Shown in pieces: positions 18,470 to 24,975 of a stretch of DNA of 64,000 bases (its first letter is position 1; each line of letters starts with the position of its first letter). Origin of the DNA: Escherichia coli. Its GTDB lineage: Bacteria > Pseudomonadota > Gammaproteobacteria > Enterobacterales > Enterobacteriaceae. The notes under the pieces are model-generated. The model was not told the DNA's origin and did not search any database. It saw only the letters and a program-made list of their open reading frames with translations. Location: the NCBI RefSeq assembly GCF_003334785.1, contig NZ_QOWV01000006.1. One strand, given 5' to 3'. The position numbers were made by a program, and so were the translations under genes.

Positions 18470-18501
18470 TGTAAAACGCAGATTATTATCTGTGTTTTAC
18501 A
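18470..18501. promoter_or_regulatory. Inverted repeat TGTAAAAC-N16-GTTTTACA upstream of ydjL; candidate operator
   Basis: Arms at 18470-18477 and 18494-18501; TTGACC -35-like hexamer at 18511-18516. Confidence 0.35.
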
Positions 18502-18579
18502 GATTTAATGTTGACCTCAAAAATCATGTGGGTAAGTATGATGGCCATCTAAGCAAAACTAAACACAGAGGATGACGCA

Positions 18580-19656
18580 ATGAAAGCACTGGCTCGGTTT
18601 GGCAAGGCCTTTGGCGGCTACAAGATGATTGATGTCCCACAACCCATGTGTGGCCCGGAAGATGTAGTGATTGAAATTAAAGCCGCGGCAATCTGCGGCG
18701 CAGACATGAAGCACTACAATGTCGATAGCGGTTCTGATGAGTTTAACTCTATCCGCGGCCATGAGTTCGCAGGTTGTATTGCGCAGGTTGGTGAAAAAGT
18801 CAAAGACTGGAAAGTGGGGCAACGCGTCGTATCGGATAACAGCGGTCACGTTTGCGGTGTTTGTCCGGCCTGTGAACAAGGTGATTTTCTGTGTTGTACA
18901 GAAAAAGTAAACCTTGGTCTGGATAATAATACCTGGGGCGGTGGTTTTTCCAAATATTGTCTGGTTCCTGGTGAAATTCTCAAAATTCATCGTCATGCGT
19001 TGTGGGAAATCCCTGATGGTGTTGATTATGAGGACGCAGCCGTACTTGACCCTATCTGTAATGCCTACAAATCCATCGCGCAGCAATCGAAATTCCTTCC
19101 TGGTCAGGATGTGGTCGTCATCGGCACTGGCCCACTCGGGCTGTTCTCCGTACAAATGGCGCGAATTATGGGGGCGGTAAATATCGTCGTCGTTGGTCTG
19201 CAAGAAGATGTGGCGGTCCGCTTCCCGGTTGCAAAAGAACTGGGTGCGACGGCAGTAGTAAATGGTTCTACCGAAGATGTGGTGGCGCGCTGCCAGCAAA
19301 TTTGTGGCAAAGACAATCTGGGACTGGTGATTGAATGCTCCGGTGCCAATATCGCACTGAAACAAGCCATCGAAATGCTCCGCCCGAACGGGGAAGTGGT
19401 ACGCGTTGGAATGGGCTTCAAACCTCTTGATTTCTCGATTAATGACATTACCGCCTGGAACAAAAGCATCATTGGGCATATGGCCTATGACTCCACCTCA
19501 TGGCGTAACGCTATCAGGCTATTAGCCAGCGGCGCTATCAAAGTCAAACCGATGATCACGCATCGTATCGGCCTGTCGCAATGGCGCGAAGGGTTTGATG
19601 CGATGGTCGATAAAACCGCAATCAAAGTGATCATGACTTACGACTTTGATGAATAA
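18580..19656 (+). CDS. ydjL: Zn-dependent alcohol/polyol dehydrogenase YdjL (MDR family), 358 aa
   Basis: Track ORF; GHEFAG motif and GxGxxG NAD-binding fold. Confidence 0.85.
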   Translation: MKALARFGKAFGGYKMIDVPQPMCGPEDVVIEIKAAAICGADMKHYNVDSGSDEFNSIRGHEFAGCIAQVGEKVKDWKVGQRVVSDNSGHVCGVCPACEQGDFLCCTEKVNLGLDNNTWGGGFSKYCLVPGEILKIHRHALWEIPDGVDYEDAAVLDPICNAYKSIAQQSKFLPGQDVVVIGTGPLGLFSVQMARIMGAVNIVVVGLQEDVAVRFPVAKELGATAVVNGSTEDVVARCQQICGKDNLGLVIECSGANIALKQAIEMLRPNGEVVRVGMGFKPLDFSINDITAWNKSIIGHMAYDSTSWRNAIRLLASGAIKVKPMITHRIGLSQWREGFDAMVDKTAIKVIMTYDFDE

Positions 19657-19682
19657 CCACTCTCCTGAAGGAACGTTATCGC

Positions 19683-21062
19683 ATGGAACAGATAACAAAA
19701 CCGCATTGTGGTGCACGGCTGGATCGCTTACCGGATTGCCGCTGGCATTCATCAATGTTTGCCATCGTCGCGTTTGGCTTGCTTGTCTGCTGGAGTAATG
19801 CCGTTGGTGGCTTGATCCTCGCGCAGCTGAAAGCGTTGGGCTGGACAGATAATTCCACCACAGCCACATTCTCAGCAATCACGACCGCCGGAATGTTTCT
19901 CGGTGCGCTGGTGGGCGGCATCATTGGCGACAAAACCGGTCGCAGAAATGCGTTCATCCTCTATGAGGCCATTCATATTGCCTCGATGGTTGTCGGTGCT
20001 TTCTCACCGAATATGGATTTCCTTATTGCCTGCCGTTTTGTGATGGGAGTTGGGCTGGGAGCTTTACTGGTTACGCTGTTTGCTGGTTTCACCGAATATA
20101 TGCCCGGTAGAAATCGTGGAACGTGGTCAAGTCGGGTTTCCTTTATTGGCAACTGGTCATATCCGCTCTGTTCATTGATAGCGATGGGACTCACGCCGCT
20201 GATTAGTGCAGAGTGGAACTGGCGGGTACAACTGCTTATCCCTGCAATATTGTCGCTTATCGCTACGGCGCTGGCCTGGCGCTACTTTCCTGAATCCCCG
20301 CGCTGGCTGGAATCGCGCGGACGGTATCAGGAAGCCGAGAAAGTCATGCGGAGTATAGAAGAAGGCGTCATACGCCAGACGGGTAAACCTTTGCCGCCTG
20401 TGGTTATTGCTGATGACGGTAAAGCGCCACAAGCGGTGCCGTATTCAGCCTTACTGACAGGAGTATTACTGAAACGCGTGATATTAGGCTCTTGTGTGCT
20501 GATTGCCATGAACGTTGTGCAGTACACACTAATTAACTGGTTGCCAACAATATTCATGACCCAGGGGATTAATTTAAAAGACTCGATTGTTTTAAATACC
20601 ATGAGTATGTTTGGCGCGCCATTTGGTATTTTTATTGCCATGCTGGTGATGGATAAAATTCCGCGTAAAACAATGGGTGTGGGGCTATTAATCCTGATTG
20701 CGGTGCTCGGATATATCTATTCACTGCAAACCAGTATGTTGCTCATAACGTTGATTGGTTTCTTCCTGATTACTTTCGTCTATATGTACGTTTGCTATGC
20801 CTCGGCAGTGTATGTCCCTGAAATCTGGCCGACAGAGGCCAAACTCCGTGGCTCCGGTCTGGCGAATGCGGTAGGGCGAATCAGTGGTATTGCCGCACCT
20901 TATGCCGTTGCAGTGCTGCTCAGTAGTTATGGCGTTACGGGAGTCTTTATTCTTCTGGGGGCGGTTTCAATTATTGTCGCAATTGCTATCGCCACCATTG
21001 GAATCGAAACCAAAGGTGTCTCCGTTGAAAGTTTAAGTATTGATGCAGTAGCCAATAAATAA
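19683..21062 (+). CDS. ydjK: MFS transporter YdjK, 459 aa
   Basis: Track ORF; 12-TM MFS-like. Confidence 0.85.
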   Translation: MEQITKPHCGARLDRLPDCRWHSSMFAIVAFGLLVCWSNAVGGLILAQLKALGWTDNSTTATFSAITTAGMFLGALVGGIIGDKTGRRNAFILYEAIHIASMVVGAFSPNMDFLIACRFVMGVGLGALLVTLFAGFTEYMPGRNRGTWSSRVSFIGNWSYPLCSLIAMGLTPLISAEWNWRVQLLIPAILSLIATALAWRYFPESPRWLESRGRYQEAEKVMRSIEEGVIRQTGKPLPPVVIADDGKAPQAVPYSALLTGVLLKRVILGSCVLIAMNVVQYTLINWLPTIFMTQGINLKDSIVLNTMSMFGAPFGIFIAMLVMDKIPRKTMGVGLLILIAVLGYIYSLQTSMLLITLIGFFLITFVYMYVCYASAVYVPEIWPTEAKLRGSGLANAVGRISGIAAPYAVAVLLSSYGVTGVFILLGAVSIIVAIAIATIGIETKGVSVESLSIDAVANK

Positions 21063-23931: not shown

Positions 23932-23940
23932 TGAAGGCAA

Positions 23941-24921
23941 ATGAAAAAGATACCTTTAGGCACAACGGATATTACGCTTTCGCGAATGGGGTTGGGGACA
24001 TGGGCCATTGGCGGCGGTCCTGCATGGAATGGCGATCTCGATCGGCAAATATGTATTGATACGATTCTTGAAGCCCATCGTTGTGGCATTAATCTGATTG
24101 ATACTGCGCCAGGATATAACTTTGGCAATAGTGAAGTTATCGTCGGTCAGGCGTTAAAAAAACTGCCCCGTGAACAGGTTGTAGTAGAAACCAAATGCGG
24201 CATTGTCTGGGAACGAAAAGGAAGTTTATTCAACAAAGTTGGCGATCGGCAGTTGTATAAAAACCTTTCCCCGGAATCTATCCGCGAAGAGGTAGCAGCG
24301 AGCTTGCAACGTCTGGGTATTGATTACATCGATATCTACATGACGCACTGGCAGTCGGTGCCGCCATTTTTTACGCCGATCGCTGAAACTGTCGCAGTGC
24401 TTAATGAGTTAAAGTCTGAAGGGAAAATTCGCGCTATAGGCGCTGCTAACGTCGATGCTGACCATATCCGCGAGTATCTGCAATATGGTGAACTGGATAT
24501 TATTCAGGCGAAATACAGTATCCTCGACCGGGCAATGGAAAACGAACTGCTGCCACTATGTCGTGATAATGGCATTGTGGTTCAGGTTTATTCCCCGCTA
24601 GAGCAGGGATTGTTGACCGGCACCATCACTCGTGATTACGTTCCGGGCGGCGCTCGGGCAAATAAAGTCTGGTTCCAGCGTGAAAACATGCTGAAAGTGA
24701 TTGATATGCTTGAACAGTGGCAGCCACTTTGTGCTCGTTATCAGTGCACAATTCCCACTCTGGCACTGGCGTGGATATTAAAACAGAGTGATTTAATCTC
24801 CATTCTTAGTGGGGCTACTGCACCGGAACAGGTACGCGAAAATGTCGCGGCACTGAATATCAACTTATCGGATGCAGACGCAACATTGATGAGGGAAATG
24901 GCAGAGGCCCTGGAGCGTTAA
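23941..24921 (+). CDS. ydjG: Aldo-keto reductase YdjG, 326 aa
   Basis: Track ORF; AKR-family sequence. Confidence 0.85.
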   Translation: MKKIPLGTTDITLSRMGLGTWAIGGGPAWNGDLDRQICIDTILEAHRCGINLIDTAPGYNFGNSEVIVGQALKKLPREQVVVETKCGIVWERKGSLFNKVGDRQLYKNLSPESIREEVAASLQRLGIDYIDIYMTHWQSVPPFFTPIAETVAVLNELKSEGKIRAIGAANVDADHIREYLQYGELDIIQAKYSILDRAMENELLPLCRDNGIVVQVYSPLEQGLLTGTITRDYVPGGARANKVWFQRENMLKVIDMLEQWQPLCARYQCTIPTLALAWILKQSDLISILSGATAPEQVRENVAALNINLSDADATLMREMAEALER

Positions 24922-24947
24922 ATACTCAACACGATTCACCTCTGTTT

Positions 24948-24975
24948 CTGTGAAAACTGTGATGAAAATCTGTGA
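24948..24975. promoter_or_regulatory. Three direct CTGTGA repeats upstream of ydjF; candidate DeoR-type operator
   Basis: CTGTGA at 24948, 24957 and 24970. Confidence 0.3.

Follow-up and report, generated by a model that had tools for sequence, protein, structure and literature searches.

We analysed a 64,000-nucleotide stretch of Escherichia coli DNA (NCBI RefSeq assembly GCF_003334785.1, contig NZ_QOWV01000006.1; hereafter the window) for the TGTGA-type repeats that precede two genes of the ydjLKJIHGF cluster, ydjL and ydjF. The cluster lies on the plus strand and consists of ydjL (18580-19656), ydjK (19683-21062), ydjJ (21079-22122), ydjI (22143-22979), ydjH (22963-23931), ydjG (23941-24921) and ydjF (25058-25816), which has a GTG start codon and encodes a DeoR/GlpR-family regulator that we presume to bind the boxes described here. 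On the same strand, msrB (17453-17896) and yeaC (17893-18210) lie upstream of the cluster and ydjE (25933-27291) lies downstream. A first-pass annotation had taken TGTGA to be the motif common to the two promoter regions and had offered two readings of it, an operator of YdjF or a set of CRP half-sites. The common unit is instead a 17-bp palindrome, ATCTKTG-N3-CAMAGAT, and we consider it probable that the repeats are operators of YdjF, overlaid by CRP sites that have already been published.

Upstream of ydjL, the dyad TGTAAAAC-N16-GTTTTACA of the first-pass annotation was found exactly at 18470-18501, and the sequence tgtgatctg that it had placed ahead of the dyad was confirmed at 18458-18466. 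The dyad extends past this first description to TGTAAAACGCAGAT-tatt-ATCTGTGTTTTACA, with 14-nt arms, one mismatch and a 4-nt loop. Inverted repeats of this quality were present at only two loci in the window, and dinucleotide-preserving shuffles contained a mean of 0.2 per window (n = 20). The second locus (15131-15167) is a GC-rich inverted repeat, TGTTGTGTGCCGGATGCATTGCACCCGGCACACAACA, between two convergent open reading frames (ORFs), and is probably a bidirectional terminator or a repetitive extragenic palindromic (REP)-like element. The dyad itself resolves into a pair of neighbouring boxes, inverted relative to each other and 21 bp apart, which match at 14 of their 17 positions once one of them is reverse-complemented. 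The left arm corresponds to a weak auxiliary YdjF-type box, AGTTGTAAAACGCAGAT (18467-18483), which scored 7.8 bits with a position weight matrix (PWM) built from Firmicute sites only, and the right arm plus 3 bp corresponds to the main YdjF-type box, ATCTGTGTTTTACAGAT (18488-18504), which is the best match in the window. In most enterobacterial genera the left arm reads TTGTGAAATGCAGAT, and 67% of non-redundant enterobacterial promoters have a box of at least 4 bits at offset -21, but Symbiopectobacterium and Enterobacillus have lost the left arm. The right arm with three further bases, ATCTGTGTTTTA[AC]AGATTT, stays conserved even where the left arm is gone, and the main box lies 90-93 bp from the ydjL start codon in all of the enterobacteria. 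Within E. coli the boxes are well conserved. In E. coli FORC_044 (locus L085), the right half of the main ydjL box (homologous to 18499-18504) reads ACATGT rather than ACAGAT, which may be a natural operator variant.

The main ydjL box begins 23 bp before the -35 hexamer of a predicted core promoter on the plus strand (18511-18539), which has a -35 element TTGACC (18511-18516), a 17-bp spacer and a -10 element AAGTAT (18534-18539), with a predicted start at about 18546. TTGACC and TAAGTAT (18533-18539) are conserved blocks in the enterobacteria, and TTGAC is invariant; the promoter scan favoured TTTACA-17-AAAAAT over the TTGACC/AAGTAT pair. A further sequence, ATGTTGACCTCAAAAAT (18508-18524), overlaps the -35 hexamer and scored 3.3 bits in E. 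coli, and its homologue in Klebsiella and Citrobacter amalonaticus reads ATGTTGACCTCAAAGAT, with a consensus right half. We regard it as a weak candidate for a YdjF-type box.

Upstream of ydjF, the three direct CTGTGA repeats that had been noticed start at 24948, 24957 and 24970, as first described. Their spacings are 9 and 13 bp, and so the claim that they recur at roughly one helical turn did not hold. CTGTGA occurs 17 times on the two strands of the window, where 24 occurrences would be expected, and thus three copies within 28 bp are unusual for this word. Asked of any word, the same question gave a different answer, because 41 of 100 shuffles contained at least one 30-bp stretch with three copies of some 6-mer. 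We therefore rejected the triple as significant by itself and found it convincing only through conservation. The sole other triple 6-mer repeat in the window is TGATAT, present three times in 21 bp (29052-29072) just upstream of the ansA ORF. Phylogenetic footprinting, which the first-pass annotation had proposed for the repeats, showed that the right arm of the dyad and CTGTGA repeats 1 and 3 are conserved in the orthologous enterobacterial intergenic regions. Repeats 1 and 3 are TCTGTG half-sites of boxes, 22 bp apart, whereas repeat 2 is specific to E. coli and was missing from all of the other species compared, including Escherichia whittamii and Escherichia sp. E1V33. In E. coli LZYWN_4 (locus L084), a 12-bp deletion between the CTGTGA repeats (homologous to 24952-24963) has removed one copy, as expected from slippage between direct repeats.

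Repeat 3 is contained in the main YdjF-type box of ydjF, ATCTGTGATTCAAACAG (24968-24984), the second best match in the window, which begins 23 bp before the -35 hexamer, exactly as at ydjL. Repeat 1 is part of the block CCTCTGTTTCTGTG (24939-24952), which is nearly invariant in the enterobacteria and surpasses every other block of the ydjG-ydjF spacer in conservation. It includes a lone half-site, TTCTGTG (24946-24952), which precedes its counterpart in the main ydjF box by 22 bp, and the block makes a full box in Yokenella alone (16.1 bits), so that its role is only half explained. The enterobacterial footprint upstream of ydjF also takes in AAATCTGTGATTCAGACAKGTT (24967-24988) and the promoter hexamers. 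A weak box, ATTTTGAAAGTAAACAT (24988-25004), overlaps the ydjF -35 hexamer and scored 5.0 bits in E. coli, but its homologue reaches 14.7 bits in Klebsiella michiganensis, and the corresponding Enterobacillus box, at -73, reaches 15.4 bits; a box of at least 4 bits is present at offset +20 in 50% of enterobacterial promoters. The ydjF promoter itself (24991-25019, plus strand) has a -35 element TTGAAA (24991-24996), a 17-bp spacer and an extended -10 element TGcGATAAT (25011-25019), with a predicted start at about 25026. It scored 10/12 in the promoter scan, with an upstream TG, and is conserved in the enterobacteria, and TTGAAA-17-GATAAT has been reported as a constitutive RpoD promoter of ydjF from systematic evolution of ligands by exponential enrichment (SELEX) with RNA polymerase (Shimada et al. 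2014, PMC3946193). The ydj cluster is present in ~4,330 of 5,426 complete E. coli genomes, and for the region around the LZYWN_4 deletion only 2 of the 4,330 genomes fell in the 90-95% identity band.

To our knowledge, the Firmicutes that carry this cluster have no CRP, and their promoters therefore provide a strong test of the motif. The comparative set was assembled by a scan for YdjH, with one genome per species, and comprised 80 loci. Firmicute ydjL promoters carry ATCTTTGAAACAAAGAA-type sequences directly upstream of a TTGAC -35 hexamer. A de novo expectation-maximization (EM) search of 37 non-redundant Firmicute ydjL upstream regions, constrained only to a width of 17 and to palindromy, returned ATCTTTGAATCAAAGAT as the clear best motif (15.1 bits). 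When the 64-kb window was scanned with this motif, the top two sites were 18488-18504 (19.8 bits) and 24968-24984 (17.0 bits), that is, the main boxes of ydjL and ydjF. The same two sites came top with the Firmicute-only PWM, which was built from pattern-selected sites (21.9 and 16.4 bits), and the best score per shuffled window with this PWM had a mean of 12.7 and a maximum of 17.1 bits (n = 50). A PWM built solely from ydjL sites placed the ydjF upstream region at rank 0-2 of ~77 control windows at every enterobacterial locus, and first of 105 in the E. coli window. No box of at least 3 bits was found upstream of ydjE (25817-25932) in the PWM scan.

The motif is present in Enterobacteriaceae, Pasteurellaceae and Firmicutes. 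In 34 of 35 non-redundant ydjL promoters across phyla the distance from the start of the box to TTGA is 22-25 bp, and the boxes are the best-conserved non-coding blocks among the 16-17 enterobacterial species compared. In every case the conserved bases reach past TGTG, to ATCTGTG...CAGAT. The motif, its positions and its conservation were observed directly. An explanation of the repeats as chance, functionless features of AT-rich intergenic DNA could draw on the frequency with which the any-word test succeeds in shuffled sequence and on the proneness of AT-rich spacers to low-complexity repeats, but it is already contradicted by the comparative data (conservation at a constant spacing from the -35 hexamer in two phyla and three bacterial families) and by the rarity of the dyad, and we give it next to no credence.

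A third YdjF-type box, TTCTGTGTTGTACAGAA (18887-18903), lies within ydjL, 399 bp downstream of the main box. It was the third or fourth best match in the window (12.4-13.7 bits), and 14 of the 16 enterobacterial sequences compared share the same nucleotides there. Just 11% of the third positions of ydjL codons are invariant among 15 enterobacterial species, and the sole run of at least four codons with invariant third positions, eight codons long (18883-18906), covers this box. The intragenic box was absent from the Firmicute and Pasteurellaceae sequences compared.

The cluster ydjLKJIHGF is wholly syntenic in ~20 enterobacterial species and two Pasteurellaceae, and its gene order is also kept in ~60 Firmicutes (Lachnospiraceae, Ruminococcus, Veillonella and Megamonas), whose proteins share 70-85% identity with E. 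coli YdjL and 44-62% with E. coli YdjF. The occurrence of this order in both Firmicutes and Pasteurellaceae (loci L022-L081) points to a cluster that moved between phyla together with its regulator and its operator. Some lineages showed features of their own. In Citrobacter, Klebsiella and Yokenella, ~2 kb of additional DNA separates yeaC from ydjL (loci L004, L005, L014, L015 and relatives), and these genera have a conserved CRP-like box of ~10 bits, TGCGAAGGGGTTCACG, ~197 bp upstream of ydjL, which E. coli is without. Six Lachnospiraceae loci (L025, L029, L031, L035, L079 and L081) have a conserved GTTTCCGGCCGGAAAC hairpin between the ydjL promoter and the start codon, which the EM search also recovered as a secondary motif. 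Upstream of ydjF, the same six loci carry a conserved block, AGGAGG-N-ATGCTTTCA(C/A)AGGA...TCTTGCAAAAACCAA, which looks like a short leader ORF overlapping the ydjF promoter.

Which protein reads the motif? YdjF has been listed as an uncharacterised DeoR-family transcription factor of E. coli (PMC4797297), and RefSeq names it a DeoR/GlpR family regulator. It gave full-length matches to the GlpR, AgaR, FucR, SrlR and DeoR models of NCBIfam, all of them below the equivalog cut-offs (for example, 171.7 against a cut-off of 300 bits with the GlpR model); the DeoR model gave 87.5 bits. Because ydjF alone among regulator genes has stayed with the cluster from E. coli to Firmicutes, we infer that the repeats are YdjF operators. 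The operator half of the first-pass annotation thus gains comparative evidence for an operator of the cluster's own regulator, although of the features that it listed only the dyad and CTGTGA repeats 1 and 3 belong to the boxes. The 25 orthologues compared show hardly any change in the helix-turn-helix segment of YdjF, VTEETIRRDLEKLE.

Several observations weigh against this reading, in whole or in part. All of the DeoR family shares the helix-turn-helix signature, whose conservation is therefore a poor guide to specificity, and we accordingly downgraded this conservation as proof of a shared one. A literature search found no experiment or paper on DNA binding by YdjF. Enrichment of the motif upstream of Firmicute ydjL was 35-fold relative to whole loci but just 3.4-fold relative to AT-matched windows, and two Firmicute loci (L065 and L069) have boxes yet no ydjF within 10 kb. 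The 21-bp phasing of the flanking boxes is limited to the enterobacteria and was not seen in Firmicutes, and regular 21-bp arrays (offsets -21 at ydjL and +20 at ydjF) were therefore rejected as a general rule. The transcription starts at both promoters are predictions. The strong boxes precede the -35 hexamer and are centred at about -50, a position that would also suit an activator, and the boxes that overlap the -35 hexamers are the weak ones in E. coli. Finally, the CRP site at ydjL is ambiguous, with three candidates, as described below.

The position of the strong boxes bears directly on the mode of control. In a manner like that of FucR, YdjF might bind the boxes and activate, recruiting RNA polymerase from about -50 either alone or with CRP. 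The main boxes at both promoters sit beside the -35 hexamer rather than over it, the ydjL -10 hexamer AAGTAT is weak, and FucR is among the NCBIfam matches of YdjF, all of which would suit an activator. We nevertheless consider activation unlikely and repression the likelier mode. The core promoters look strong, with TTGAC and a good -10 element in most cases and near-consensus sequences in the Firmicutes; the ydjF promoter binds RNA polymerase alone (PMC3946193), and the ydjL promoter is silent in vitro. The ydjL promoter has been found inactive in culture but active in the mouse gut (PMC6561318), as expected if the inducer of a repressor is absent in vitro. A gap of 6 bp separates the end of each strong box from the -35 hexamer, and overlap with the promoter is provided only by the weak boxes and by half-boxes within the spacer between the -35 and -10 elements; these half-boxes count against an activator, as does the intragenic box, which fits repression by looping. 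Most of the characterised members of the DeoR/GlpR family, moreover, are repressors.

CRP has a published place at both promoters. A cAMP-CRP SELEX-chip peak was mapped to the ydjG-ydjF spacer and assigned the box ACAGATTTTCATCACA (Shimada et al. 2011, PMC3105977 Table S3). In the window this box is the reverse complement, TGTGATGAAAATCTGT (24958-24973), and consists of CTGTGA repeat 2 and the start of repeat 3. It scored 8.3 bits with a CRP PWM built from 149 boxes of Table S3, the ydjF box having been left out (10th percentile of the training boxes, 5.0 bits; median, 11.0 bits), and there were 33 sites of at least 8 bits in the window. Its good half is repeat 2 and is confined to E. coli, the TGTGA half being missing in E. 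whittamii, Escherichia sp. E1V33 and all of the other genera compared. The box is centred at about -60.5 relative to the predicted start, near the class I position. The best CRP-PWM match in the whole window is elsewhere, at 17349-17364 (TGTGATTTTCATCACG, 17.2 bits), and is the published msrB-gapA CRP site.

At the other promoter, the ydjLKJIHG genes are crp-dependent in vivo, and CRP shifted the promoter in an electrophoretic mobility shift assay (EMSA; PMC8085971). The candidate site TGTGATCTGAGTTGTA (18458-18473) has only a good left half, TGTGATC (18458-18464), which is invariant in 16 enterobacterial species. The site as a whole scored 1.7 bits (left half, +9.9; right half, -8.2) and is centred at about -80.5 relative to the predicted start. 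Two other candidates scored higher, at 18465-18480 (5.2 bits) and 18537-18552 (6.9 bits). Relative to the start codon, the E. coli TGTGATC lies at -122, and Pasteurellaceae have canonical CRP sites at -126/-127 that scored 16.3 and 18.9 bits. Aggregatibacter and E. coli differ by 7 bp in the spacing between CRP site and box, however, and the Pasteurellaceae and E. coli sites are thus not simply equivalent.

It could be argued from these data that all of the TGTGA-type repeats are CRP half-sites and that CRP is their only reader, since CRP has TGTGA as its half-site, both regions are bound by CRP-cAMP in vitro and TGTGATC at 18458 is invariant. We consider this very improbable. The same 17-bp motif occupies the same place in the Firmicute ydjL promoters that served as our test; conservation runs past TGTG in every case; and the only decent CRP box at ydjF depends on an E. 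coli-only repeat and is matched in score by many sites in the window. The ydjL dyad was rejected as a CRP site, because its arms are 22 bp apart rather than separated by N6 and scored below 5.3 bits as CRP sites. The half-site claim of the first-pass annotation was therefore right in part: repeat 2, TGTGATC and the published binding at both promoters speak for CRP, and the dyad does not belong to it.

The dyad could also act as RNA. Adams et al. cloned a ydjL 5' untranslated region that starts at window position 18103, inside yeaC and 477 nt before the ATG, so that read-through transcripts cross the dyad, and they reported a strong Rho-termination region early in ydjL (K-12 position 1861188, approximately window position 18724). 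The dyad fold is stable (-19.4 kcal/mol, z score -4.5), and the scan flagged it as terminator-like. It might therefore be a hairpin that terminates or attenuates transcripts arriving from msrB-yeaC or from a start inside yeaC. Comparison of the 16 species revealed no covariation, however: one pair has changed on both sides, and 405-477 of 500 shuffles reached the observed values; one pair is broken in 12 of the 16 species, and the right arm is kept in the two genera that have lost the left. The stem has 4 G-C pairs among its 15, and the tail, AUUUAAUGUU, is a poor U-tract. A permissive Rfam search of 17400-25200 gave no match. A hairpin would moreover leave the ydjF site and the Firmicute sites unexplained. 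We rejected it as the main function of the dyad, and rate it marginally below an exclusive role for CRP.

We therefore return to YdjF as the probable reader of the boxes and propose the following mechanism. Each promoter has one strong box centred ~50 bp upstream of the predicted start, flanked at ~21 bp on both sides by weaker ones. As long as inducer is absent, an oligomer of YdjF would occupy these boxes, possibly looping to the intragenic box, and would exclude both RNA polymerase and CRP from both promoters, in which case ydjF would be autoregulated. By analogy with the family, YdjF would be released by a phosphorylated pathway intermediate, the putative inducer being the product of the YdjH kinase, for which ketose-uronate 1-phosphates are candidates. 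CRP-cAMP would then assist the weak ydjL promoter through TGTGATC just upstream, and may, in E. coli alone, have a second target in ydjF, where the middle CTGTGA creates a box for it.

Such an arrangement has close relatives among known systems. In the E. coli glp regulon, GlpR operators are ~20-bp palindromes arrayed next to one another around the promoter, about two helical turns apart; they are overlapped or flanked by CRP sites, there are internal operators within glpD, and the inducer is a sugar phosphate. The ydj system resembles it in regulator family, side-by-side palindromes, adjoining CRP sites, an intragenic box and, as proposed above, a sugar-phosphate inducer. It differs in that the ydj box is ATCTGTG-N3-CACAGAT and the strong box precedes the -35 hexamer instead of covering -10/+1, and in that YdjF falls below the GlpR equivalog cut-off and its binding is predicted. 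In the deo operon, DeoR acts through several palindromic operators (O1, O2 and OE) hundreds of base pairs apart, with looping and CRP-dependent promoters. Here the likeness is a DeoR-family regulator with several predicted palindromic operators, but the deo operators, 16-bp palindromes (TGTTAGAA.TTCTAACA), lie over -10 regions, whereas the distant ydj box is intragenic and downstream, and YdjF is only distantly related to DeoR. The intragenic box at 399 bp recalls the auxiliary operator O2 of lac, which lies 401 bp downstream, in the first structural gene, although the LacI family is unrelated to YdjF and looping at ydj is a prediction. With class I CRP promoters the ydjF box and the ydjL half-site share their positions relative to the predicted starts, together with published CRP binding and crp-dependence, but both are poor matches, and the ydjF box is specific to E. 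coli.

A bolder form of the proposal is speculative, and we put it forward as a distinctly less probable extension. The ydj cluster might be a self-contained cassette of enzymes, transporter and regulator, with a module of fixed geometry in which the box stands 6 bp from the -35 hexamer, that moved between Firmicutes and Proteobacteria. An intragenic operator at 399 bp, looping in the manner of lac O2, and an overlaid CRP site would be the enterobacterial additions, and YdjF at -50 would act chiefly as an anti-activator by keeping CRP from contacting the alpha subunit of RNA polymerase.

What is most likely new here is the definition of a predicted YdjF site; the CRP sites were known, the type of control would be ordinary for a sugar operon, and the current view of how such operons work is unchanged by these results. 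An operator prediction for an uncharacterised regulator nevertheless makes binding of YdjF to the three boxes, its interplay with CRP and the search for its inducer open to experiment, and the ydj promoter-operator module would be a compact part for gut biosensors. The presence of this module in many gut Firmicutes suggests that these bacteria and E. coli share a transferable response to one gut metabolite.

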